Source: Candidatus Saccharimonadota bacterium
GTDB lineage: Bacteria > Patescibacteriota > Saccharimonadia > Saccharimonadales > SLHW01
Assembly (NCBI GenBank): GCA_050486305.1
Contig: JBJHDA010000001.1
Location: 563,071-627,070 of the forward strand
Length of the DNA: 64,000 nucleotides
Direction: 5' to 3'
The position numbers were made by a program, and so were the translations under genes. A model generated the notes under the pieces. That model was not told the origin of the DNA. It did no database searches and was given only the letters and a program-made list of their open reading frames with translations. Position 1 is the first letter of the stretch; each line of letters begins with the position of its first letter. Shown here piece after piece: positions 17,179 through 31,732 of the stretch.

Positions 17179-18087
17179 CTAAAACGGCCGTTCGCCACGC
17201 TCGATCTTGTTCTGGATTCGCTTAAGCTCATACCGCTTACCAAGCCAGAACGTTGAAAGTATAAAGGGTATCAGGATTGCGGCTGGTTGCCACAATATTC
17301 GAGTCGTGGTTGTTGCCGCCGTATCAACGGGCTCACCAACATCCTCTTGGCTTAACGGTCCGTTCGCCACGCCGACTAATTGCAGGAAAGCAGGGCTGCC
17401 GTTGGCATCAGTCGCCTTAATAATAATGTTGTATACACCTGGTCGCTCGTAAACATGTTCTATATCAAACGAACCAGGAAACTCTCTACTAAACAAATCC
17501 GGCGACGTACCATCACCCCAGTCAACACTGAACGCATAGGGGCCTTGACCGCCAGAAAGGTCAATCGGCCATACTAGTGTTTCACCAGGGTTAGCGCCTC
17601 GCTTCGCATAATTACTCGAAAGGGTTGGTCTGCCAACAGCCCCGACGCTATCATCCTCGTACGTTACCGTTACGACGTTCGAATCCGGGCCCGCTTGATC
17701 GAGCGCATCGAAAACCCTGGCTACGAGTTCATTTTCGCCGATAAAGAGATCTGTTTGGATACTATAGCTGCCGTTTTCACAGGCCGCGGAGCCGCTAAAA
17801 ATGCCGTTTTTGAAAAGCTTGATAATTAGGTCGTCGCCAGCAGGACACAAACCAGACACGGTAATTGGCAGCGATGTGAACGTTTGACCATTGCTCGGCA
17901 CGGCTATCGTGGCAGCCTCAGACGGAGGCGGTGATGAAATACTGCCTTGCATACCGATTGCCCCACCTTGCGGGTTTTCCGGCGGAGGACTCACCTGAGC
18001 ATTTGCGATGCTCGTTATAGCGAATGCGAACATGGCAAATGCAGCAACAAACAACAGAGAGCCTGATGCTATTTTGATTTTTTGCAT
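17179..18087 (-). CDS. surface protein with signal peptide, Ig-like region, PKD domain and C-terminal TM anchor
   Basis: Track ORF extends to 18177. The ATG at 18087 gives the signal peptide MQKIKIASGSLLFVAAFAMFAFAITSIANA. PKD-like motif WGDGTSPD...HVYERPGVYNIIIKATDANG. C-terminal TM plus a basic tail. Confidence 0.7.
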   Translation of the reverse strand: MQKIKIASGSLLFVAAFAMFAFAITSIANAQVSPPPENPQGGAIGMQGSISSPPPSEAATIAVPSNGQTFTSLPITVSGLCPAGDDLIIKLFKNGIFSGSAACENGSYSIQTDLFIGENELVARVFDALDQAGPDSNVVTVTYEDDSVGAVGRPTLSSNYAKRGANPGETLVWPIDLSGGQGPYAFSVDWGDGTSPDLFSREFPGSFDIEHVYERPGVYNIIIKATDANGSPAFLQLVGVANGPLSQEDVGEPVDTAATTTTRILWQPAAILIPFILSTFWLGKRYELKRIQNKIERGERPF

Positions 18088-18223
18088 AATGTTTGTATTT
18101 ATCACGAGTGTAATTCGTTTACTGTCATTACTATGGTAGCGCCTCTGTTGTAAAAAAACAAGTCTGCAGGTAGGCAATACGAGTTACCTGCAGCTTGTTT
18201 TGTTTCGGTGTTATGGGCTAGAT

Positions 18224-19216
18224 TTAGCGTCGTTTTTTCGTTGACTTCTTGTTGCTTCGTTTGTTTACGATGCTCACCACCCCAAAGGCGATAGCTGCAA
18301 GTGCCACAAACAAGACGATGAGCGCCCAAACCGGTATATACCAGAAGGTTGCTTGTGCGCTGATTGGCTCTCCGCCTCCCTGCATATGGCCGATGTTTGC
18401 TTCGATAGTGTAGCGGCCGAACCAGCTCCTAGAATCTAAGTCATCCTGGAAGCGACGAACAGTGTCAGGGAGAACGTATGCGCGAGGGCTGCTGTCATTC
18501 AGCTCATACGTCTGCACGACATCACCAAACATGTTCCGTATCTGAATACGTCCGTTTGGCTGAAGGTGGATATCACCGCTGTTACGAAGCCTTACAAGAA
18601 CGCTCACGTCACCGCCGGTAAAGAACGACCGCAGTGAACTGTCCTGAGCAGCAGAAAGCTGAACAAGATCAAGCCGTTCAGTTAGATCGCCCGGTACCCG
18701 GACTAAGGCAATACTGCCAACACTCGCAGAAAGCGTTACGTTTCCGGCATCTTGCAGGTTAGCTGGTTCAAACCGGACGATTCCGTAATATCCGCCAGCG
18801 TTCGCGTCTTCAGGTACCGTAATCGGTACGTCTATCTCGACACGCTCTCTTGCGTCTAGGTCAAAGCTATCGATGTTTCCTACCAGCGATCGAAAGCTGT
18901 TTCGGGGTGCAGGAGCGTTTTCGTCTAAGATTGGCCGGACTTCGCCATCCTCATTCTCGCCTGCAACAAAGTCATTGACTATGGCTACCGCTGTTAGTGG
19001 TACATCTGTCGGGTTTTCGATGGTAATATTCATTACTTCGGTCTGGCCAGGCTCGATAACAAATTCTGACGTTACCGGAGATATTCGGAATCCATTACCA
19101 ATTGCGCTTTGTTCGCCAGCTGGCTGCGCAAACAGATTCGTAACCGACAAAAGGCTTACTAATAAAAACGCCGTCGCAATCGTAAATAACCCTAGTTTCT
19201 TGATAGAAAGTGACAT
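18224..19216 (-). CDS. membrane-anchored surface protein, DUF916/DUF3324 (CscA)-like, tentative
   Basis: The ATG at 19216 is preceded by GAGGG. Signal peptide present. FRISPVTSEFVIEPGQTEVMNITIENPTD resembles the DUF916 opening by eye. C-terminal TM (VWALIVLFVALAAIAFGVVSIV) followed by a KRSNKKSTKKRR tail. Confidence 0.6.
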   Translation of the reverse strand: MSLSIKKLGLFTIATAFLLVSLLSVTNLFAQPAGEQSAIGNGFRISPVTSEFVIEPGQTEVMNITIENPTDVPLTAVAIVNDFVAGENEDGEVRPILDENAPAPRNSFRSLVGNIDSFDLDARERVEIDVPITVPEDANAGGYYGIVRFEPANLQDAGNVTLSASVGSIALVRVPGDLTERLDLVQLSAAQDSSLRSFFTGGDVSVLVRLRNSGDIHLQPNGRIQIRNMFGDVVQTYELNDSSPRAYVLPDTVRRFQDDLDSRSWFGRYTIEANIGHMQGGGEPISAQATFWYIPVWALIVLFVALAAIAFGVVSIVNKRSNKKSTKKRR

Positions 19217-19269
19217 TTTCCCTCTCTTTTTCTTTCTCATTTAGCTTATGATTGAATCATAGCAACATT

Positions 19270-20340
19270 TTAAAAGTTTGCCAAGGTTAGGAACGACATT
19301 GTCGTAGAGTAAATACCTGGTGCTTGACCCGAGTCAACATTGGTAATATAGCTTATTGTAAACTTTCTCAGATCGCTTGGGACAGGGCTGGTTACGATCG
19401 CCTGCCCGCTTGCGAACATAAACTGGTTGACCGTGTTGTAGTTTGCGGTCGGTGTCGCAGTCCCTGGACCAGTCGGGTTCGCCCCGACGTTAGGGTTGGT
19501 ATTATTCCTTAGGTTCAATCCGAACTGACTCACACCTGTTTGCGAGGCAGCCGGTGTCGGCAAAGCATTTATGACGTTATTTCCTGACATAAGCGTCGTA
19601 CCATTAATACGCGTTGCGTAGCCGTTAGCAGCATTGGTTGCCGCGACTATTTGCGAGGTGGCTGACCTGGTAGCTGCGTCGGAAAACTCGCCCAAATCTA
19701 TAAAGAAGCTGGTCGCAGTGGAGCAATCCATACCCTGAATCTGCACTCCTGCGCAAAATGTCAGGTACGGCGGCACCTCGGCTTCGACGTTTACGTCGAT
19801 ACTCGTTGATAAAGCGACACCGCCAGCCTGAGTATGCGGCCCAGAGGCGTCTTCTGTCGGGTAGGTAAATATCCTGGCGTAAAAGGAGCCGAGATACGAT
19901 GGGTTCATAATCTCGCCTAAATCATATTCCAGTTCTGCTTCTGTTGGCACTTCTGGAGTTCTGGTGAGGATAATATTGTAGTCATCACTGTCTCCGTGAA
20001 TCGAAAAGCCCGTCTCGCCCTCCTCTTCCAACAGCACAGCATCTGAAGCATCGAAATCGTCCGGCGGATCACAAGGAGTGCCGATAATCGGCGTATCGCC
20101 ACAGTACTGTATCCGAATCGAGCCAATCGGCACAGAAAAATCAGATATAGTAAAGCCCACTTTATGTTGCCCGACATCACTCGGTCGAGGATTCTCGAGC
20201 TGCACAAACCGGTCTTGAACGACACTTGCCGAAGTTGAAAACGGTGATAGCACCATTACAAGTGCTATCACCGTTATAAGAACTGTGCTTACAGCTATGA
20301 TTCGAGAGCGGTCAGTCTTTGTTTGCATCCTCACATTCAT
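19270..20340 (-). CDS. secreted surface protein, paralog family member 3 (356 aa)
   Basis: N-terminal signal/TM. Shares YCGDTPIIG..C, LTFC, SQFGLNL and a C-terminal PGIYSTTMSFLTLANF with the next gene. Confidence 0.7.
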   Translation of the reverse strand: MNVRMQTKTDRSRIIAVSTVLITVIALVMVLSPFSTSASVVQDRFVQLENPRPSDVGQHKVGFTISDFSVPIGSIRIQYCGDTPIIGTPCDPPDDFDASDAVLLEEEGETGFSIHGDSDDYNIILTRTPEVPTEAELEYDLGEIMNPSYLGSFYARIFTYPTEDASGPHTQAGGVALSTSIDVNVEAEVPPYLTFCAGVQIQGMDCSTATSFFIDLGEFSDAATRSATSQIVAATNAANGYATRINGTTLMSGNNVINALPTPAASQTGVSQFGLNLRNNTNPNVGANPTGPGTATPTANYNTVNQFMFASGQAIVTSPVPSDLRKFTISYITNVDSGQAPGIYSTTMSFLTLANF

Positions 20341-20371
20341 AGTGTAGCATCATGCTTTTGCTTCTATCCCT

Positions 20372-21598
20372 CTAGTAACGACCAGTAGCGATGAAGTCTA
20401 GCGTCGTGGTGTATATGCCCGGCTCGGTTGTGTTGGAGATGTTACCGAGGAAAACGAGCACACCGGTAGAAAATTCACCTGCGTTCTTCAGCGCTATCGG
20501 GCTACCGTAGGTTGCAAGTGTTTCGCCTGTGTCGAAGGCAAATAGTGCTCCGTTGTCGAAACCGTTGCCTTGACCTTGCGAAGTACCGTCACAATCAGCG
20601 TGGTCATATGGTGTAATTGCGCTCAAGCCTCCAGTATCGCGACTATCCGGGTGTGTGTACACACACAGTCCGAACTGCTCTGTTCCAGGGGCGCTTGCAG
20701 TATCAGTGTCGCCTATCGCATCAATACTGAATGAACCTGATGTCAATGTCTCACCTTTCATTCGAACAGTCGCACCAGCTGATGCATTCGTTGTAATGTT
20801 AAATTTCGCGTCTTTACTGATGGATGGATTGGTTGAATCCAATACACCGTTATCATCACCTAAAATTACCGGATCAGAGCTAAACCCAGAGCAGGTGTTA
20901 TAGTCGTCCAACTGCGGATCAGGATCAAACACGAGAGCATCAGTAAGGATACAGAACGTCAGACGTTCCTGCACCTTAGCCTCGATGGTAATTAGCTCTG
21001 CTGTACTGAGCGCGATACCACCGGCAAAGTTCGGGTTGTTTACGTCGGCAACTGAGTAAGCGTTGGCTGCTGTATCTGTCTCATACACCATTATCCTGGC
21101 GTAGAACGTCTCAATAGCAGTTGGATTGTCTACGTCTTCTATCGTGAAGACAACACTGTCACCAGCTCCGGTTGCGTTTTCCGGTGTAGCGTTCGTTAAT
21201 GTTACTGTATTTTCTTCTGCTCCACCGGTCGATTCATTAGTGAAGGCTGCTGTAAAACCGGACAGGTCTACATCACTTGGTTCAGTGTGGTCTACGCTCG
21301 CACCACTAAGGCTGAACCCAGCCGGCACCGTACAGTCTGAATCACCGATAATCGGTGTTTCTGCACAGAATGCTACGACAACACCGCCGATGTCGTCGGT
21401 ATTCGGTACCTCAAAATCCACTCGGTACGATACTTCTTCAGCGCCGCCCTCAGAAGTGCTCATCCGAATTTCACGATCACCCAATATCGTATAGGCACTG
21501 GCAGTCTGGCTTGCAAGCAGCGGCACCATAGTGGCCACAAGCAGTAAGGCTGCAGCAGCTATCGACGTTGAGCGCCGTAGTTTATCTACAAAAACCAT
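20372..21598 (-). CDS. secreted surface protein, paralog family member 2 (about 408 aa)
   Basis: The ATG at 21598 lies 8 nt after AAGGAG. Signal peptide present. FCAETPIIG..C, LTFC and GTEQFGLC motifs, with C-terminal PGIYTTTLDFIATGRY. Confidence 0.7.
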   Translation of the reverse strand: MVFVDKLRRSTSIAAAALLLVATMVPLLASQTASAYTILGDREIRMSTSEGGAEEVSYRVDFEVPNTDDIGGVVVAFCAETPIIGDSDCTVPAGFSLSGASVDHTEPSDVDLSGFTAAFTNESTGGAEENTVTLTNATPENATGAGDSVVFTIEDVDNPTAIETFYARIMVYETDTAANAYSVADVNNPNFAGGIALSTAELITIEAKVQERLTFCILTDALVFDPDPQLDDYNTCSGFSSDPVILGDDNGVLDSTNPSISKDAKFNITTNASAGATVRMKGETLTSGSFSIDAIGDTDTASAPGTEQFGLCVYTHPDSRDTGGLSAITPYDHADCDGTSQGQGNGFDNGALFAFDTGETLATYGSPIALKNAGEFSTGVLVFLGNISNTTEPGIYTTTLDFIATGRY

Positions 21599-21748
21599 AT
21601 GCAATTCTCCTTTTGTATTGGCTTTTTATTTTTAGTACTAGCACTTATCACCTTAGCATAAGGGGTTTATGAGAAGCAACTGAATCGCTGGTAAGTTATC
21701 CACAGCTCCTAAGCCCGCCTGTAGCGGCAATATTAGTAATGCTGCTGC

Positions 21749-22474
21749 CTAATACTGCCCTGTGGCGACCAAAATCTGGCGGAACTCGTACTGACCTGAT
21801 GGCGTTGCTTCTGAAATGTTAAATATATAGGAGATGGTGTAGAGCGTCACGCTCGTACTTTCCTCTGAATAGGCTATCGCATCACCTTTGTTGTACAAGA
21901 AATTATTTGGCTGAGCATAATCACTGGTGACTTGGCCGAAAGAGAACGAGCCGTCGGGTTGTTGAATCAATCCTTCGCCGACTGCTGGGTCGGTGTTCTC
22001 TACAAGATTTATGGCAAACTGCTCAGTTCCAGGCGCGGAGGAGGTCGGAGTGCTCGGGGTGGCAAACTGGTGGCCGTTTGCAACGTTCGTTGGCGGATCG
22101 GCATCGGTTGTCACGCTGTAGCCGCCAGCTTGCCAGGCACGAACATAAAACTGCCCCTGTGCCGTGTTCGTTTGTGAGGTATCAAGAAAGCCAAGATCGA
22201 TATTGTTGCCAGTTACCACGAACTCCAGAAACGGTTCATCCGTCGTATTAAACCCTGCAAACGCCCTAAAGTTATCACTGTTAAGCTCGCCGATGCCTAG
22301 TTCACCCAGCGTCGCTCGGCTTCTAAAATTATCTGACTGCAAGTTCGTTTCCCCGCCGGAGCCAAAGAACGTCTGATCCACCTGATAATTCGGCGAAGAA
22401 GATGTCTGAGCCAACACAGATGCCGGCAAGACGAATGACCCGAATATAACCAGTGCGATAATCAGTTGTTTCAT
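21749..22474 (-). CDS. secreted surface protein, paralog family member 1 (241 aa, single-domain version)
   Basis: Signal peptide MKQLIIALVIFGSFVLPASVLA. GTEQFAINL motif and C-terminal PSGQYEFRQILVATGQY. Confidence 0.7.
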   Translation of the reverse strand: MKQLIIALVIFGSFVLPASVLAQTSSSPNYQVDQTFFGSGGETNLQSDNFRSRATLGELGIGELNSDNFRAFAGFNTTDEPFLEFVVTGNNIDLGFLDTSQTNTAQGQFYVRAWQAGGYSVTTDADPPTNVANGHQFATPSTPTSSAPGTEQFAINLVENTDPAVGEGLIQQPDGSFSFGQVTSDYAQPNNFLYNKGDAIAYSEESTSVTLYTISYIFNISEATPSGQYEFRQILVATGQY

Positions 22475-22618: not shown

Positions 22619-23596
22619 ATGGATAATGATTCGCAAAACAACAACGACTTAAACACACTGGAAGATCAAGGCACCGTCGTCAGTCAAGACGGAGCAGATT
22701 CCCCGCCCGGCGCTGCACCGCAAGCAGGTGGCGATAAGCCAGAAAAAAAGCCAAAAAAGAAGGGGAAATTTTCTGTTTCTCGCTTGATTAGCCGAGTAAA
22801 CATATACTTTTTGTTCTTCGTACTAATCGTCGTAATTGCTGGTACCGTCGTGTTTATCGGCTACCAACGTGACCGTGATAGCGGAGACGATGACCGGATC
22901 GGCTCACAAAGCTTGACCGCTGAAGAACTTGAACAGTTGGCAGGAAGTGACACTCGTATCGGTGACCCTCAGCAGCTTCTGACCGTCGAGTCTAATACAG
23001 TTTTTTCTGGACAGGTGCTTGTTCGTGACAATCTAGACGTAGCTGGCCAGATAAGCGTTGGCGGGAGCCTGAGCCTACCTGGTATAACCGTATCCGGGAC
23101 AAGCAACTTTGACGAAATCCAAGCAAACAGCTTATCCATCGCTGGTGATACAAATATACAAGGGCAGTTCGTCGTTGATGGCAGCCTAACCGTTGGTGCA
23201 GGCGGCAGCTTCGGTGGCGGCATTTCTGCACCACTCATCACAACCGATCAGCTACAGCTTACTGGTGATCTGCAAATAACCAGGCATATTGATACCGGTG
23301 GGCCTACACCGTCCGTGTCAAACGGTGGAGCAATCGGATCCGGCGGCACAACTTCAATCAGCGGCAGCGACACCGCTGGCACAGTTGCCGTTAACCCTGG
23401 TAATGGTGCTGGCAATGGTCCGGTCGCAGTCGTAACATTCGCCAATAGCTTTAATCAAACACCTCATGTCGTGGTGACCCCCGTCGGCAGAAGCGTTAAT
23501 TACTATATAACCAGAACAACAACAGGCTTTACGATTCACGTATCAGGCAGCCTTTCGTCAGGCAGCTTTGCTTTCGATTATATCGCTTTTGATTAG
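22619..23596 (+). CDS. membrane-anchored beta-helix-repeat surface protein (325 aa)
   Basis: Lys-rich cytoplasmic N-terminus, one TM, then repetitive G-x-hydrophobic repeats (VAGQISVGGSLSLPGITVSGTSNF, GDTNIQGQFVVDGSLTVGAGGSFGGG). A beta-rich C-terminal domain follows. Transcribed divergently from the paralog cluster. Confidence 0.65.
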   Translation: MDNDSQNNNDLNTLEDQGTVVSQDGADSPPGAAPQAGGDKPEKKPKKKGKFSVSRLISRVNIYFLFFVLIVVIAGTVVFIGYQRDRDSGDDDRIGSQSLTAEELEQLAGSDTRIGDPQQLLTVESNTVFSGQVLVRDNLDVAGQISVGGSLSLPGITVSGTSNFDEIQANSLSIAGDTNIQGQFVVDGSLTVGAGGSFGGGISAPLITTDQLQLTGDLQITRHIDTGGPTPSVSNGGAIGSGGTTSISGSDTAGTVAVNPGNGAGNGPVAVVTFANSFNQTPHVVVTPVGRSVNYYITRTTTGFTIHVSGSLSSGSFAFDYIAFD

Positions 23597-23605
23597 ATTA
23601 CTTCT

Positions 23606-23905
23606 TTAAACGTCCAGGAAGACGACGACTTCATTCGATTTTACGTGCATGACGCCCTGCTGAATGCTAATCGTTTCCTTTTCACCATCGGGTTTTCGGA
23701 TAACGATATCGCCTTTCGCAAGAATTGATATGAACCGGTGATGCTTACCCAGCACGTCGAAGTTCCCGGTATCGTTAACTGCAGAAATGCTGACTGCCTC
23801 GCCATCAAAATATGTCTTGTACGGAGCATGCACCTTAACGTGCATGATACTCTCATCTGTTTGATTGGCTGCGTTCTCTTCAGGAGGAGTGTCGTTATCT
23901 GCCAT
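23606..23905 (-). CDS. atpC: ATP synthase epsilon subunit, beta-sandwich only
   Basis: Last gene of the atp operon. About 80 aa of beta-sandwich-like sequence after a short acidic N-extension. No C-terminal helical hairpin. Confidence 0.7.
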   Translation of the reverse strand: MADNDTPPEENAANQTDESIMHVKVHAPYKTYFDGEAVSISAVNDTGNFDVLGKHHRFISILAKGDIVIRKPDGEKETISIQQGVMHVKSNEVVVFLDV

Positions 23906-23932: not shown

Positions 23933-26105
<2,173 letters not shown>

Positions 26106-26109
<4 letters not shown>

Positions 26110-27716
26110 GATTGCTTCTCCACTGCCTTCGCCTTTTCTTTTTCATCGTGCTTGGCTTTTTTCGCTTCTTTTTTGCTCGGCTTTTTCGGTTCTTTTTCTG
26201 CAGCTGCTGTTTTATCTGCTTCTTTTCCGTCTCCGGCTTGGTTGTCGCCGCCACCATCAGCCTGACCTGTTGGAGCTGAACCCTCGGCGCCTTTTAGCTG
26301 GACCACGCATTTCTGTTTCAGCTGCGCCTTTACTGCATCGTAGTCTTCGTCTTTTTTGACCTTTTCAGCATACTCAACTAGGTATAACTTTAAATTACCG
26401 ACATCGATTTTTTCGCCCTCTTCTGCGTTTAGCACAATGTCCAGCGCAAGCTGCTGAGCCACCAATGAATACGTGTCGCCAGGAGATTGCGTGAACAATG
26501 CGAAAAGCTGTTCGCCGGTTTCCAGCGCTCGCTTTGCTTCCAGAGCAAGCTCCGAACCGAAGTGTGAAAATTCCTGAGCCTGCCGATAGTCGGCCAGCAG
26601 CTTAAGCGACTGAGACGCAAGCGCTTTTTGGCGCTTGTTATGGCCGATACCACCGGCACGAGTCACAGATAAGCCAATATTCAAGGCCGGGCGAATGCCG
26701 TCTCGGAAAATATTCATATCCAGAATCCACTGACCGTCAGTAATCGACATAATGTTCGTCGGCAAGAAGGCAGTAATATCGCCACCTGCAGCGTTCACAA
26801 TCGGGATACTCGTTAGGTGCTTGCCACTTGCATCAAGCCGGCCGGCTCGCTCGAGTAGACTTGAGTGGGCATAAAACATATCACCTGGGTATGAGTCCCG
26901 CCCCGGGCTAACGCCGGACATCAGAGCTACCTCACGATAGGCGTGGGCGTGACTGGTCAAGTCATCGTAAATGATGATGGTGTCTTGATCGCACTTCTGC
27001 CATAGGTACTCTGCCATAGAGCAGGCAACATACGGAGCGATATAGCTCATTATTAGTGATTCGAACATATTAGATACGACGACAATGGCCTTCTCGAGTC
27101 CGCCATTCTCCTGCAGGCTTGAAAGCAGCGCGTCAACGTCACTGCGTCGTTTGGCGATAAGACAGTAGACAACGACTTGGTCGGTGTTCTTCTGGTTTAT
27201 CGTCAGCTGGGTTGCCAAGGTGCTTTTCCCTGATTTGCTATCGCCAAGCAATGCCATACGCTGACCGCGCACGACCGGATACAAAGAGTCGATCGTCGTA
27301 ACGCCGCTCTCGAGCTGGTCGCTTAGAAGCTTTCTTTCATATAGTGGCGGCGCAGTATTAAATACCGGCCAGACGCCATCAGCCGCAATCGGTCCTTTGC
27401 CATCAATCGGCTCACCGGTTACCGTAACTACCCGACCGATAAAATCCTTCCCAACCCGGCAGACCAGCTCCTGGTGCTGGATGACCGCAGTCATGCCAAG
27501 ACGAAGCTTTTCGCTGCCAAGGTGCAGCACGGTAACCGTATCTTTCTGCACCTGATGGACGAATCCTTTGCTTCCATCCTCAAACAGAACAAGCGCCTGG
27601 ATAGAACATGGCTGGAGCCCTTTTAGCGTTATGAGATAGTTATCGACTGCCAATACCTCACCGACTGGATTCCCGGCAGCAACCAGCTTATCAAAGTGTT
27701 GATTACCGGAATTCAT
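26106..27716 (-). CDS. atpA: ATP synthase F1 alpha subunit with Lys/Glu-rich C-terminal tail
   Basis: Walker [23 protein letters not shown] and [15 protein letters not shown] motifs. About 60 aa of low-complexity tail ([24 protein letters not shown]). Confidence 0.9.
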
Positions 27717-28303
27717 TGCGCCGCCTCCGTCGTTTGGGCTTGAGGCTGTACTTCAGGCTGCTGTGGCGCTGGTTGCGTCTCAGCCTGAGGCTCAGTATTT
27801 GATTTGAGACTAGAGACATACTTCATCAGCAAGCCGCGCTTCTTCCGAAAATCCTCCCGCAAACTTAAATCAAACACCTGGTTGGTGGAACGTATGACAC
27901 ACCCGGCCCCGATATTCGGTTGCAGCCCGACCTGCACTAAAACGTATGGGTGAATTGTCGAGCGTAAATAATCTGTCAGTTTACCGAGAAATAGTGGTGA
28001 TGGATCAACGCTAAAGCTAATATGCAGCTTAGGTCCACTGTCGCGGAGTGATGTCAAAAACTGTCGCAGTGTTGCCCGGTCTTCTTTTTTGAGTAAATTC
28101 AAATCATTATTCGTTGCCACGGCATCAAGCAGCTTGCTCATTTTTGGCAGACTCATCGTTGTGCCAGGCTCACGGATCGAAGACTGATGCATAAAATCGT
28201 CAAGCGACTCCATTTCTCTTGCCAATCGGCTTACGTCCATTACCCCAACAACACTGTTAGGGAGCTCGATTTTCTTTGTATCATGCGTATCTTTATGAGC
28301 CAT
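27713..28303 (-). CDS. atpH: ATP synthase delta (OSCP-like) subunit
   Basis: Operon position. C-terminal [20 protein letters not shown] resembles the OSCP C-terminal motif. Confidence 0.65.
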
Positions 28304-28916
28304 CCTGCAGGTCCCGGATTATGACGTCTTTGTTTTGTTCTATGTCAGAAATTATAAAGTCTAGCTGGTCATTCAAATCTATCTGATCACCGATAGCCGC
28401 TAAGACGTAGTGATTCACGATATCACCGATATTTTCTTCGAACCGCTTGAGCATATGAGCTTTCTCTGACTCAATCTCTTTTACGAGCTGTTGACCCATC
28501 ACTTGCCGCTGCTGCTCGATAGCCTCCTGCGTTTTGGTAATCGAATCTATGGCCATTTGTTTTGCGTCGGTAATTGATTCTTCGTATTTAGAGAACTCGT
28601 CCTGCAGCTTTTTGGTAATTTCGTCTTTCATGAACTCATTCAGCTGAGAGGTGGTCAAGCGAAGGTCTTGCTGAAGAAACATGGCATTCTCGCCGATAAT
28701 TTTTTCGAAGTGTAATCTACCCCTGTTTCGGAGTTCTTCACGAAATTCATCGTTAAAGATGTGCTCGACATCACGCTCTGCCTCGTCAAAGTGGCTGCCC
28801 GCAGCATCACGGGATTGCTTACCGGCACCATTACTAACGCGCAGGCCGAGCCAGATAATTGCCACAGCGGTGGCCGCTATTCCTACAAGTAATGCTGCTA
28901 GTCCGTATATATCCAC
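28293..28916 (-). CDS. atpF: ATP synthase b-like subunit
   Basis: GTG start, a single N-terminal TM (LAALLVGIAATAVAIIWLGL), then a long charged helix. Operon position matches. Confidence 0.6.
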   Translation of the reverse strand: MDIYGLAALLVGIAATAVAIIWLGLRVSNGAGKQSRDAAGSHFDEAERDVEHIFNDEFREELRNRGRLHFEKIIGENAMFLQQDLRLTTSQLNEFMKDEITKKLQDEFSKYEESITDAKQMAIDSITKTQEAIEQQRQVMGQQLVKEIESEKAHMLKRFEENIGDIVNHYVLAAIGDQIDLNDQLDFIISDIEQNKDVIIRDLQDGS

Positions 28917-28947
28917 GTAATTATCCCACCTCTCGTGTATTGCATTA

Positions 28948-29784
28948 CTACAATCTTAAGATTAAATATACTCCAAAAATACCTATTATGAAAATGATAA
29001 GCCCGACAATAACCACCTGTAACATCCCGCGGATAATCGACCGCTTCGATAACGGGTTACGCCCAATAGACGTGATACTGCTGCGCACACCGCTGTACAT
29101 CAGGCTGCCGGCGATAAACGTACTGATAAGGAAGATGAATGTCGCGATATACACCCGGTTCGCCGGTACGGAATCACCCGCGATAGACTCAGCAGCTTGC
29201 CGCAGGAACTCCGGCAGGTTCGCCTCCGTCGGTTTCTGCAGCGGGTTGCGTGCTGCCAAAACATCGACGTCGATACGTCCGATGGAAACGGTCCTGTCGC
29301 CGGCTTGTGCCGTACCGACAGCATTGCTGCCGTCAAAGCCGCTGAGTGCCCGACCGATAACGACTGGCACTATGTCATTCACTCGCATACCGATGCCTTC
29401 CAGAGACGAAATAGTGATAAAATCACCGGGTTCGATTGACCCGTTCTGCGTACTTACCAGCACCCGATAACGGCCCTGGGTGGCGACAAACACTTCGGAT
29501 TCGGAATCACCAGAGAGCGTTACGGCTGCATCGTTCGGATTGATAACTACCCCGTAAAGCTCCTCGACCCGTTCTAGCGTAGCGGGACGGACTTTGCCGG
29601 TGTCTTCTTGGTCGAGAACAACGATCAGGCCTCGCTCCAGCCGTTCATCGCTATCAAAGCCTTGGGCAACAGACTGGGCATCAGCCAGCGGAAAATTGAG
29701 CGCAAGAATTACGAGCGCGATGAGGCCTGCCACAGCCATGACTTTTTGCACTGAAAACCATTGTCTTATTTTTGTCTTATTCAC
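28948..29784 (-). CDS. signal peptide + about 190-aa extracytoplasmic domain + C-terminal two-TM hairpin with R-N-P loop (c-subunit-like, no carboxylate)
   Basis: Lies 32 nt upstream of atpF on the same strand. The C-terminus is IATFIFLISTFIAGSLMYSGVRSSITSIGRNPLSKRSIIRGMLQVVIVGLIIFIIGIFGVYLILRL. Confidence 0.6.
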   Translation of the reverse strand: MNKTKIRQWFSVQKVMAVAGLIALVILALNFPLADAQSVAQGFDSDERLERGLIVVLDQEDTGKVRPATLERVEELYGVVINPNDAAVTLSGDSESEVFVATQGRYRVLVSTQNGSIEPGDFITISSLEGIGMRVNDIVPVVIGRALSGFDGSNAVGTAQAGDRTVSIGRIDVDVLAARNPLQKPTEANLPEFLRQAAESIAGDSVPANRVYIATFIFLISTFIAGSLMYSGVRSSITSIGRNPLSKRSIIRGMLQVVIVGLIIFIIGIFGVYLILRL

Positions 29785-29840
29785 GTTAAATAAACTATCG
29801 ATTTAAACCTTGTCTGTACAAGAGGTATTGTAGCATACCG

Positions 29841-30992
29841 CTACTGTTTTTTTGAAAGAAGCCGGCGAAGGGTCTGTACGGTTTGGTCTATGTCCGTATC
29901 AACTGTTGCCTGACCCATGGAAAAACGAATGCTCTGCTGAGCTTCTGCATCGGCTTTACCGATAGCCTGCATTACACGAGAGGGCTTTTCCTGGTTGTTC
30001 GCGCTGCAAGCAGAGCCGGCTGCCGCTAAAATACCCTGCCCCTCCAGCTGCAAAAGCAAAATTTCGTTATGCATACCAGGGAACGTCACGTGCAAGTTAT
30101 TGGGCAACCTGTGTTTCACTGACCCGTTTATAACAGCGCCTGGACACTCGGAGGCAAGCAGTTTTATGAACTGCTGCTGGAGTTGCTTCATGCGCCTGGT
30201 TTCTTTTTCACGATTTTGCTGGACTTTATTCAATGCCGCTGCCAGACCGACGGCGTTTACCACACTCTCGGTACCGCTGCGTATATTCCGCTCCTGGCCG
30301 CCGCCACGGATAATCGGTACTACTCGTAGCTGGCGGCTCACAAACAAGCAGCCTGATTGCTTAAATCCGTAAATCTTGCCGCCGTTCAGCGTCATCATAT
30401 CAACACCAAGGGAATTAACATGTAAATCAAGATAATTCGGCGCCTGGCAGGCATCGGTGTGGAAATACAGCGGCAAAGTATTGCCGCTTGCTTTACGTTT
30501 TTCGCGGATTTCCCGCACCACAGCAGCAATTTTTCGCAGCGGCTGCACCGTACCGATTTCGTTATTGGCATAAATAATACTAAGCAGCACCGTGTCGTCA
30601 TCTATCTTCTGCCGGATTGCAGCCACATCAACAAGCCCCGCCTCTGTTGCAGGTACTTCGCTAACGTCATATTGGCTGGCGGGTTCAAACACAGAATCAT
30701 GCTCGAGCGAACTGACAACACACCGCTTTTGGGGATACTGATCCATTACCCCCGCTATCGCCAGATTATTCGCCTCGGTTCCGCCAGCCGTGAAGAAAAT
30801 CTCCTCGCTGCGCACGCCGAGCCAATTAGCAACAATGCCCCGGGAATCATCAAGCGCACGGCGGACCTGTTTTGCTGGCTCATACCGTGCCGAGGGGTTA
30901 AAAAACGCATCAGCAAAATATGGCTGGGCACTTGCCAGCACTTCAGTGTCAACTGGGGTAGCAGCAGCATAGTCAAGATAAATCATAGTCAT
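29841..30992 (-). CDS. cysteine desulfurase (class V aminotransferase, NifS/IscS-like)
   Basis: IYLDYAATPV N-terminus, HTDACQ, a PLP-lysine region LNGGKIYG and an active-site loop AAGSACSAN. Confidence 0.85.
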   Translation of the reverse strand: MTMIYLDYAAATPVDTEVLASAQPYFADAFFNPSARYEPAKQVRRALDDSRGIVANWLGVRSEEIFFTAGGTEANNLAIAGVMDQYPQKRCVVSSLEHDSVFEPASQYDVSEVPATEAGLVDVAAIRQKIDDDTVLLSIIYANNEIGTVQPLRKIAAVVREIREKRKASGNTLPLYFHTDACQAPNYLDLHVNSLGVDMMTLNGGKIYGFKQSGCLFVSRQLRVVPIIRGGGQERNIRSGTESVVNAVGLAAALNKVQQNREKETRRMKQLQQQFIKLLASECPGAVINGSVKHRLPNNLHVTFPGMHNEILLLQLEGQGILAAAGSACSANNQEKPSRVMQAIGKADAEAQQSIRFSMGQATVDTDIDQTVQTLRRLLSKKQ

Positions 30993-31032: not shown

Positions 31033-31404
31033 CTACAAGGCGAAGGTATAAAGCTGTTGCCGTACGGCTGCCTGGTATGATTTGGCAGCCGCGAATAAGT
31101 TCTCGGCTTCCTCTTCAGTGACAGGAGCGTATTGACCGTCCCGAACCTTTAGTACGCAGTCCGGCCGGACTTCATAGCGGGTGGTTTGCATACGGCGCTG
31201 GCTGGTCTCTTCGTCCGTCCATTCTTCGTGCCACACCCACGTTCGCTCGTCTAGGCAGAAAAATTCCCGACGCTCGCCAGATGGAACCGGACCAAACACT
31301 TCACCGCCGATTCGCGCTTCATGCCGGATTAGCTTATTCTCCAGCTCACGCTCGCGAGCGGCCTTTCGCTCCTCACTGGATTGGTTAAGCAGCTTTTTCA
31401 GCAT
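31033..31404 (-). CDS. hypothetical protein (about 123 aa)
   Basis: Track ORF extends to 31422. The ATG at 31404 (MLKKLL) lies 7 nt after GGAGAGGAG. Confidence 0.55.
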   Translation of the reverse strand: MLKKLLNQSSEERKAARERELENKLIRHEARIGGEVFGPVPSGERREFFCLDERTWVWHEEWTDEETSQRRMQTTRYEVRPDCVLKVRDGQYAPVTEEEAENLFAAAKSYQAAVRQQLYTFAL

Positions 31405-31732
31405 GGCCAAACTCCTCTCCAATCCCGTCGTTTCTATCCGCAGCGTCTTGTGCTGCCCGGGTTATCTTTTCTATATCAGCCTGGCTGAACTCCTGGGTAG
31501 TATCAACGACCGGCTGGTTCGCCTGTGCTCCCGCTTCAAAATCTACCTGCACAGCACTATTCGAGCGCGGCTGATCTGTCTCAGATGTGTGTACTCCCAT
31601 TTCGCGCAGCGCATGGCCAAGCAGCCCGACAGCAACATCGATCTCCCAGACTCTGTCTTGCTCGACCCTCGTTGGCGGGAACTCTCTGCGGTTATCCTTC
31701 GTTTCCGGTGATAAAAGTTTTCGTATACTCAT
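31385..31732 (-). CDS. hypothetical acidic protein (115 aa)
   Basis: Track ORF that overlaps the downstream gene start. No family recognised. Confidence 0.45.
   Translation of the reverse strand: MSIRKLLSPETKDNRREFPPTRVEQDRVWEIDVAVGLLGHALREMGVHTSETDQPRSNSAVQVDFEAGAQANQPVVDTTQEFSQADIEKITRAAQDAADRNDGIGEEFGHAEKAA

Follow-up and report, generated by a model that had tools for sequence, protein, structure and literature searches.

We analysed a stretch of 64,000 nucleotides (nt) from a Candidatus Saccharimonadota bacterium (contig JBJHDA010000001.1, positions 563,071 to 627,070; hereafter the window), in which gene X (29784 to 28948, minus strand) opens a run of seven tightly packed genes on one strand, in the order X, b-like, delta-like, alpha, gamma, beta and epsilon. 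On the best reading of the data, X is the membrane partner of an F1-like ATPase that has no Fo, and is itself c-like, possibly c-derived, but not ion-binding. The first-pass annotation of this gene had left it between a degenerate or repurposed c-like rotor or stator element and a coincidental hairpin, and the repurposed c-like element is the best-supported of these options. The ordinary ATP synthase context which that annotation implied did not hold up, as the operon appears to be a separate F1-like lineage without a or c subunit. Unless noted otherwise, all features below lie on the minus strand.

The open reading frame (ORF) of X has 278 amino acids (aa) from a GTG start, and the family alignment together with an AlphaFold2 model divides it into signal peptide, beta ectodomain and c-like hairpin. 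A public gene call (P0001) uses an internal ATG at codon 16 and yields 263 aa; the GTG is more likely the true start, because the homologues have a common Lys-rich n-region, M-x-K-T-K. Hydropathy gives three hydrophobic segments, at about residues 12-34, 211-233 and 250-277. Residues 1-36 (29677 to 29784), as delimited by hydropathy and the family alignment, consist of a Lys/Arg-rich n-region, a hydrophobic core and an A-D-A|Q site; the first hydrophobic segment is followed by this A-x-A-type site, ADA|QSV, and a small-x-small pattern followed by Q or E recurs after the N-terminal segment in the family alignment. The N-terminus is probably a cleaved signal peptide, and could instead be an uncleaved N-terminal transmembrane helix. 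The AlphaFold2 model (150 homologues; predicted local distance difference test score, pLDDT, 94.2; predicted template modelling score, pTM, 0.79) shows a beta domain (residues 40-179) and a short helix (192-202), followed by two long helices, 208-242 and 244-277, that run antiparallel and have pLDDT values above 93. From the model and column conservation, the short helix (29179 to 29211) is juxtamembrane and comes after a conserved P191-F-L. The family is large: clustering at 90% identity gives 857 clusters, and at 50% identity there are 2814 representatives (E ≤ 0.001).

The C-terminal sequence quoted in the first-pass annotation was exact, and the two-helix hairpin with a basic R-N-P loop described there is confirmed by hydropathy, by the AlphaFold2 model and by the conservation of the loop. 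According to the model and to conservation, helix 1 (residues 208-242; 29059 to 29163) would run from the outside to the cytoplasm and carries conserved R210, Y212, Y230 and R234, and helix 2 (residues 244-277; 28954 to 29055) has Q256 conserved at 66% and Y273 at 95%, with no conserved Asp or Glu. The loop between the helices, GRNPLSKRSIIR, has four positive charges, which should place it on the cytoplasmic side and both hairpin ends outside. With both ends outside and a basic cytoplasmic loop, the topology should be that of an F-type c subunit. The G-R-N-P of this loop (residues 241-244; 29053 to 29064) belongs to the most conserved element of the entire protein: in an alignment of 150 representatives with a mean column identity of 24%, G241, R242, N243 and P244 are each 99% conserved and L245 94%, and R242-N243-P244 is invariant across 50 homologues. 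The R-N-P conservation that had been proposed as a check is thus essentially complete. Neither hairpin helix has a conserved acidic residue among the 150 representatives, and the fraction of Asp plus Glu is about zero at residues 257-276, as the earlier statement on helix 2 had it. Position 262, which lies 18 residues past the loop Pro at the carboxylate site of c subunits, is Leu, Ile or Val. In about 2 Mb of related loci, R-[NQ]-P occurred in the loop of 0 of 290 other predicted two-helix hairpins.

In a Foldseek search with X (50 best-matching rows), the hairpin matches among those listed were nearly all F-type c subunits, the best having TM-scores of 0.82-0.90 and root-mean-square deviations (rmsd) of 0.9-1.4 Å. 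The best superposition was on the Chloroflexus c subunit (9itt_I; TM-score 0.90, rmsd 0.9 Å over 66 residues), and c subunits of Bacillus PS3, bovine and yeast origin also matched. In searches of PDB sequences with profiles of X, the Chloroflexus c subunit ranked third with the full-length profile (E 1.1), AIGRNP being identical, and was the sole match of the hairpin-only profile (E 0.041 over 43 columns; 177,635 sequences). The c subunits of Chloroflexi and Patescibacteria (P0338, Wolfebacteria) all have A-[IM]-[GAS]-R-N-P, with an invariant Glu 18 residues past the Pro and the GxGxGxG motif. Aligned by hhalign with these c subunits, the hairpin family of X reached a probability of 79% (P 1.5e-5); with 12 textbook c subunits the loops were in register at P 0.009 and a probability of 4.7%, too weak to be used by itself. 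A reversed c alignment, used as control, gave P 0.2.

The remaining genes of the cluster form a complete F1 head and shaft, that is alpha, beta with intact Walker A, gamma and the epsilon beta-sandwich, to which delta-like, b-like and X are added. The F1 alpha-like protein (536 aa, 26106 to 27716) matches PF00006 at E 3e-65 and has a Lys/Glu-rich C-terminal tail; the catalytic beta-like protein (435 aa, 23933 to 25240) matches the same family at E 2e-63 and has the Walker A sequence GGAGVGKT. The gamma-like protein (290 aa, 25237 to 26109) matches PF00231 at E 9e-35, with an hhalign probability of 98.7 against canonical gamma, and the epsilon-like protein (99 aa, 23606 to 23905), which consists of the beta-sandwich only, matches PF02823 at E 5e-15, with an hhalign probability of 98.2. 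The delta/OSCP-like protein (196 aa, 27713 to 28303) matches PF00213 at E 0.02 and NCBIfam delta at E 0.003, with an hhalign P of 2.7e-4 against canonical delta over 98 columns. The best NCBIfam scores of the F1 proteins are to canonical F1 models, and all four miss the equivalog cut-offs (atpA 375/484, atpD, TIGR01039, 421/463, gamma 102/194 and epsilon 50/67 bits).

The gene after X encodes a protein of 207 aa (28293 to 28916) with an N-terminal transmembrane helix and one helix of about 140 residues, modelled by AlphaFold2 as helices 3-28 and 57-194, and the modelled architecture is that of a b-type peripheral stalk. Pfam has no match for the b-like protein of the window, and public sources list it throughout as 'hypothetical' with no precomputed Pfam domain. 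Its profile found a mycobacterial ATP synthase b subunit as best match in the PDB (E 0.15), PF00430 was touched by 3 of 19 orthologues (best E 2.5e-4), and hhalign against canonical b was not significant (P 0.017). No conserved intramembrane arginine was found in its transmembrane helix. The b-like family comprises 5517 clusters at 90% identity. Foldseek on its single long helix was uninformative and was set aside. Ordinary b subunits show little conservation. In the b-like protein, by contrast, a stretch of 45 residues, VEHIFNDEFREELRNRGRLHFEKIIGENAMFLQQDLRLTTSQLN, is almost invariant among orthologues only 55-85% identical overall, and NHYVL..IG.QIDL..QL is conserved near the C-terminus; these stretches suggest specific protein contacts along the stalk.

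X was previously placed 32 nt upstream of atpF. The position stands; the gap is 31 nt (stop TAG at 28950-28948, next GTG at 28916), and the neighbour is only a divergent b-like gene. A strong Shine-Dalgarno sequence read from the DNA, GAGAGGTGGG (28925 to 28934), lies inside this gap, 8 nt ahead of the b-like GTG, and no terminator-like site was found in the 31 nt. Upstream of X, a promoter-like site, TTCAAA-18-TACAAT with a TG extension (29827 to 29856), is a consensus match only, and the count of such sites in the region equals the shuffle expectation.

X lies where atpE would usually stand, as the first-pass annotation had noted, for canonical operons have a-c directly before b. The canonical operons fetched as controls, two from Patescibacteria (L169, L172) and one from Chloroflexus (L171), run a-c-b-delta-alpha-gamma-beta-epsilon, and in a published table the canonical Saccharibacteria operons have this order too. 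Searches with phmmer and hmmsearch found no ORF for an a or c subunit in the window. Nor was any found in an X locus (172 loci, about 2 Mb), such ORFs being present only in the three control operons.

Sequence comparison of the F1 subunits indicates that the cluster is a separate Fo-less F1-like lineage and not an ordinary ATP synthase. In neighbour-joining trees the X-type alpha, beta and gamma group in a single clade, which takes in the window, five further Saccharibacteria and eleven distant loci and leaves out the three canonical sets. Alpha of the window is 53-58% identical to distant X-type alpha and 35-38% to canonical alpha, and the two Patescibacteria operons and the Chloroflexus operon are 63-70% identical to one another; for gamma the corresponding values are 43-53%, 21-23% and 38-52%. 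The X-type alpha, beta and gamma are further from canonical Patescibacteria subunits than the Chloroflexus subunits are. A published BlastKOALA table for Saccharimonadia (PMC12592800, Table S5) lists one alpha/beta/gamma set together with a, b and c for TM7x and RAAC3, two alpha/beta/gamma sets with one a/b/c set for S. aalborgensis, GWC2_44_17 and Mycosynbacter amalyticus, and alpha/beta/gamma/epsilon with no a, b or c for several CAILAD01 bins. This table fits the presence of two enzymes, and the extra copies may be X-type.

Linkage of X to F1 genes was followed at two depths. A species-level scan (one genome per species, seeded with an alignment of 7 sequences) gave 197 relatives of X, of which the best 80 loci were analysed; a second scan, of metagenomes and with distant members as seeds, added 80 loci, 39 of them with at least 2.5 kb downstream. 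The titles of the best 80 loci are mostly Saccharibacteria or Saccharimonadia, the others being generic labels. In 78 of the 80 the genes b-like, delta-like, alpha, gamma, beta and epsilon come after X in this order, the remaining two contigs stopping at X, and the median gap from X to b is about 29 nt. The cluster comes directly after X in 27 of the 39 distant loci with room downstream. In one distant locus (L086), where X is 27-31% identical, the seven-gene cluster is kept and the upstream genes, a two-component system and a CNNM transporter, are wholly different. In another (L124) the order is b-delta-alpha-gamma-beta-epsilon-X, with X last, and a third (L160) has two X paralogues, one of which adjoins a b-like gene. 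The linkage to atp genes that had been proposed as a check is thus borne out: F1 genes adjoin X across deep divergence, with changed flanks and changed gene order. A contig labelled 'Candidatus Limnocylindria bacterium' (Chloroflexota; L035, P0463) carries the complete Saccharibacteria-type block, with tatD, aminotransferase, X (52% identity) and b-like. It is probably a mis-binned Saccharibacteria contig, and with such identity and identical synteny it was not accepted as evidence for X in Chloroflexota.

Several observations weigh against a c-like membrane partner. A helical hairpin is a simple fold, and AlphaFold2 may favour c-like geometry. The profile comparison with c subunits, which the first-pass annotation had called for, turned out mixed: beside the Chloroflexus match and the hhalign probability given above, the C-terminal 66 or 80 aa of X have no match to PF00137, AtpI or AtpZ in Pfam even at E ≤ 10, where only noise appears, and no NCBIfam model matches X or its hairpin at that same limit. 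The Chloroflexi and Patescibacteria comparison set was moreover selected via the shared loop motif. When the four GRNP columns were removed from both alignments the signal was gone (P 0.67), and the sequence homology between X and c subunits therefore rests on one short motif. Neither helix 1 of X nor the family consensus has the GxGxGxG packing motif. If X formed a c-ring, a fusion at the N-terminus of its inner helix would be hard to accommodate sterically. In Saccharibacteria the synteny is wider than the operon, running metS-tatD-aminotransferase-X-F1 (in the window a class-V aminotransferase gene lies upstream of X), and because this whole block is syntenic, the adjacency of X and F1 within Saccharibacteria is not specific alone. 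Finally, about 11 of the 39 distant relatives are not beside F1 genes and have giant surface proteins and parAB nearby.

Balancing these points, we judge the hairpin of X to be c-like in topology, geometry, loop and gene position. It fails membership of the c family, for it lacks the carboxylate and the Gly motif and matches no c profile. The hairpin may plausibly have descended from a c subunit. The functional inference is identical whether the hairpin is c-derived or convergent on the loop motif.

The ectodomain (residues 37-185; 29230 to 29676) is an extracytoplasmic beta domain with a fold that Foldseek relates to phage decoration and fibre-anchor proteins. The earlier prediction of a signal peptide agrees with our data; its extracytoplasmic domain of about 190 aa was too large, as the ectodomain has about 150 aa, or about 170 aa with the linker. 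With residues 40-179, Foldseek matched capsid accessory proteins of Borrelia phage BB1, Sf11, phiCD508 and T1 as well as P21 SHP in the PDB (E 1e-4), and in BFVD a preneck appendage, the Mtd N-terminal domain and tail or capsid-fibre proteins (E 2e-10, 20-26% identity). The Pfam family PF23982 (XM1_gp53) matched the ectodomain at E 0.0018 and 18.6 bits, under its gathering threshold of 27, in agreement with the fold matches. PHROGs gave nothing useful for X and no match to the ectodomain. In phages, modules of this kind are usually oligomeric and serve to attach decoration proteins or fibres to a larger body. A scan of viral contigs found no relatives of X, and we therefore rejected a phage origin for the gene as a whole. 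A biotinyl- or lipoyl-like reading of the stretch G-D-Y-I...G-I-G-M-K-A was likewise dropped, since the Lys is not conserved (Arg in X) and the fold matches the phage decoration type.

Taken together, Saccharibacteria and related uncultured lineages may have a second rotary ATPase that is F1-like and Fo-less, with X as its membrane subunit, a proposal that in our judgement could equally prove right or wrong. An oligomer of X would replace the c-ring, either as a ring or as a smaller bundle; the latter is considered because relatives of the ectodomain are usually trimeric. The RNP loops would bind the gamma/epsilon foot in the manner of the R-Q/N-P loops of c subunits. With no a subunit, stator arginine or carboxylate, no ion transport is expected, and the enzyme would therefore be an ATPase and not a synthase driven by the proton motive force. 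The alpha3beta3 head would hydrolyse ATP and so rotate gamma-epsilon-X relative to the b-like/delta-like stalk, or would at minimum drive a conformational cycle instead of rotation, and the torque or shape change would cross the membrane to the ectodomains and their cargo. Candidate cargo are the giant surface proteins that neighbour several X paralogues, which we offer as a lead and not a finding. Only tentatively do we go further and suppose a rotary motor that arose from F1Fo, with a and c replaced by a carboxylate-less c-derived hairpin under a phage-fibre-anchor-like ectodomain, in which a surface-exposed rotor or its torque moves or tensions giant proteins for host attachment, motility or attack, which would be a parallel, of independent origin, to the gliding and MIB-MIP motors of mycoplasmas; this fuller scenario we hold to be doubtful.

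Very large ORFs, probably for surface proteins, adjoin six of ten unlinked X paralogues examined (L116, L122, L131, L139, L140 and L156). Most of these ORFs have 1400-2800 aa, that of L140 being cut by the contig end, and parA/parB lie beside four of the ten. An oppositely oriented ORF of about 220-260 aa, which we guess to be a signal peptidase, is often found near unlinked paralogues with giant ORFs. Another paralogue away from F1 genes occurs in L143, and in L086 a protein of more than 1900 aa comes directly after the epsilon gene.

Membership of X in an F1-like complex does not by itself make it a rotor. It could anchor the b-like stalk in the membrane or be its partner in the stator, or else form the output of a non-rotary mechanotransmission of FtsEX or MacB type. 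The cluster holds no other polytopic protein, so the single transmembrane helix of the b-like protein needs a partner, and the ectodomain relatives are oligomeric attachment modules. AlphaFold3 models of the mycoplasma F1-like ATPases (see below) put the analogous protein, with signal peptide and two transmembrane helices, off the gamma/epsilon foot, which touches a 12-transmembrane protein; the X cluster, however, has no 12-transmembrane protein to fill that role. The loop of real c subunits contacts gamma/epsilon, and the invariant part of X is precisely its cytoplasmic RNP loop, on a hairpin that superposes on c subunits. Moreover, gamma and the epsilon beta-sandwich are fully kept, which is hard to explain without a rotor partner, and we think a role for X outside the rotor unlikely. 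A further step away from the motor, X could be an ordinary surface protein with a two-helix anchor that is merely co-transcribed or syntenic with F1 genes, its R-N-P being coincidental or serving some other cytoplasmic contact. The failure to match c-subunit models significantly, the restriction of c similarity to four columns, the reach of Saccharibacteria synteny far past the operon and the giant surface proteins beside unlinked paralogues are all in line with this. Against it, the linkage is kept at 27-35% identity, with other neighbours and even with X at the opposite end of the operon, and X fills the exact slot where a and c are missing. Its loop is also the element most conserved, with a motif that the 290 other hairpins did not have, and since one of the two paralogues in L160 is linked and the other is not, copies away from F1 genes need not act without a motor. 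We consider an ordinary surface protein quite unlikely.

It is also conceivable that the cluster is a normal F1Fo synthase with atpB and atpE elsewhere, and that X is an accessory or assembly factor like AtpI. Split atp operons exist in other bacteria, and the DNA inspected covers 64 kb, out of a contig that measures 630 kb or more. In several reference Saccharimonadia a single set of a, b and c is present (PMC12592800). Yet the a and c genes of Saccharibacteria and other Patescibacteria sit in canonical operons that are complete with b, delta, alpha, gamma, beta and epsilon genes of their own. Genomes with two alpha/beta/gamma sets and one a/b/c set imply two separate enzymes, and some bins have alpha/beta/gamma/epsilon and no a/b/c at all. 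In the trees the X-type alpha, beta and gamma stand apart as a clade, and X has no similarity to the AtpI or AtpZ families. A dispersed but normal synthase thus appears very improbable, and the Fo-less F1-like ATPase with X as its membrane partner is the reading that we retain.

The closest known analogues of the X cluster, by gene content and architecture, are the mycoplasma F1-like X0 ATPases, of which Type 2 (MMOB1610-1670) powers gliding in Mycoplasma mobile and Type 3 (MMCAP2_0581-0575) is required for MIB-MIP antibody cleavage (PMC3369863, PMC12994834). In these systems one of the proteins that co-purify with the F1-like subunits has a signal peptide, ectodomains and two transmembrane helices at its C-terminus (PMC3369863, PMC12994834). 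Both kinds of cluster have seven genes with alpha-, beta-, gamma- and epsilon-like subunits and no a or c, and both occur in genome-reduced, host-dependent bacteria; the mycoplasma cluster is a paralogue of a genuine F1Fo operon. X shares its signal peptide, ectodomain and two C-terminal transmembrane helices with MMCAP2_0577 and MMOB1650, the comparison being by architecture only. Coupling to extracellular machinery in place of ion transport is known for the mycoplasma enzymes and would apply to the X cluster by proposal. The differences are also considerable. The X cluster keeps b-like and delta-like genes, whereas the mycoplasma clusters have a 12-transmembrane protein and a small cytoplasmic protein and no b or delta, and X has 30 kDa as compared with 85-127 kDa for the mycoplasma proteins with signal peptide and two transmembrane helices. 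Alpha and beta of the window scored 311/600, 343/850, 248/520 and 368/570 bits against the cut-offs of the MMOB1660/1670 and MSC_0619/0618 models, all under their atpA/atpD scores, so the F1 subunits of the X cluster are nearer to canonical models than to mycoplasma F1-like models. The mycoplasma F1-like X0 paper links no c-ring or c subunit to the proteins with signal peptide and two transmembrane helices. X and its hairpin matched no NCBIfam model (E ≤ 10), a library not checked for models of these mycoplasma proteins.

Compared with the F-type c subunit itself (PF00137; PDB 9itj chain H, P0338), X shares a hairpin with outside ends and long helices that protrude into the cytoplasm, a loop A/S-I-G-R-N-P identical to that of the Chloroflexus and Wolfebacteria c subunits, and a gene immediately upstream of a b-type gene. 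Unlike a c subunit, X is fused behind a signal peptide and a 150-aa ectodomain and has no a subunit alongside; unlike phage decoration or fibre-anchor proteins, it is a cellular membrane protein.

In a literature search we found no publication joining an F1-like Fo-less cluster with Saccharibacteria or Patescibacteria, only general statements on F-type ATPase. The transposon sequencing (Tn-seq) paper on Southlakia deals with an ordinary ATP synthase only, and F-type ATPase genes of Saccharibacteria are routinely taken as a proton-coupled ATP synthase (e.g. PMC11659515). If a large share of these genes for alpha, beta, gamma and epsilon encode parts of a motor unable to move ions, metabolic reconstructions of Saccharibacteria are partly wrong. 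If true, our proposal would also provide a second case, outside mycoplasmas, of an F1 motor reused for extracellular work, in another ultrasmall host-dependent lineage. With its b/delta stalk and native loop motif, the X cluster may show how such motors arise from F1Fo and which contacts, such as that of the RNP loop with gamma/epsilon, persist. Two large 'hypothetical' families, X and the b-like proteins, would thereby gain a testable role.

Some further features of the F1 genes were seen. The C-terminal tail of alpha (26106-26320) is a low-complexity Lys/Glu/Ala-rich stretch of about 70 aa that is absent in distant X-type alpha (476-477 aa; L086, L124), and the delta-like protein ends in a Gln/Pro/Glu-rich tail (27713-27800). 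NCBIfam alignments of alpha begin at residue 15-17 against model position 24-29, and the N-terminal delta-binding helix of alpha may be shortened. Two X-type clusters carry an extra 1.3-2.5 kb between gamma and beta (L090, 13236-15720; L099, 13283-14604). The canonical Patescibacteria operon L172 has a 118-aa gene for a 23S-rRNA-intervening-sequence protein (PF05635) in its gamma-beta gap, and unlisted genes also lie between gamma, beta and epsilon in the Saccharibacteria operon published from Lac Pavin.

Downstream of the ATPase cluster, five consecutive genes (17179-22474) encode secreted or anchored proteins of 332, 338, 356, 410 and 241 aa. The 338-aa protein has weak matches to PF06030 (WxL-interacting peptidoglycan-binding, E 0.0018) and to Fn3-like domains, the 332-aa protein has a PKD domain, and the three others end in short aromatic C-terminal motifs. 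Judged by these matches, the group looks like a WxL-type surface-protein cluster as in Firmicutes, and genes of similar size come after epsilon in L002. Convergent with epsilon, a gene on the plus strand (22619-23596) encodes a 325-aa protein with a Lys-rich N-terminus, one transmembrane helix and a weak bactofilin-like beta-helix match (PF04519, E 0.0011); a gene of about 320 aa stands at the same place in L002 and L003. Between tatD and the aminotransferase gene, two small overlapping ORFs of 129 and 115 aa (31033-31732, minus strand) have no Pfam match, and two called genes of similar size occupy this position in L001-L003.

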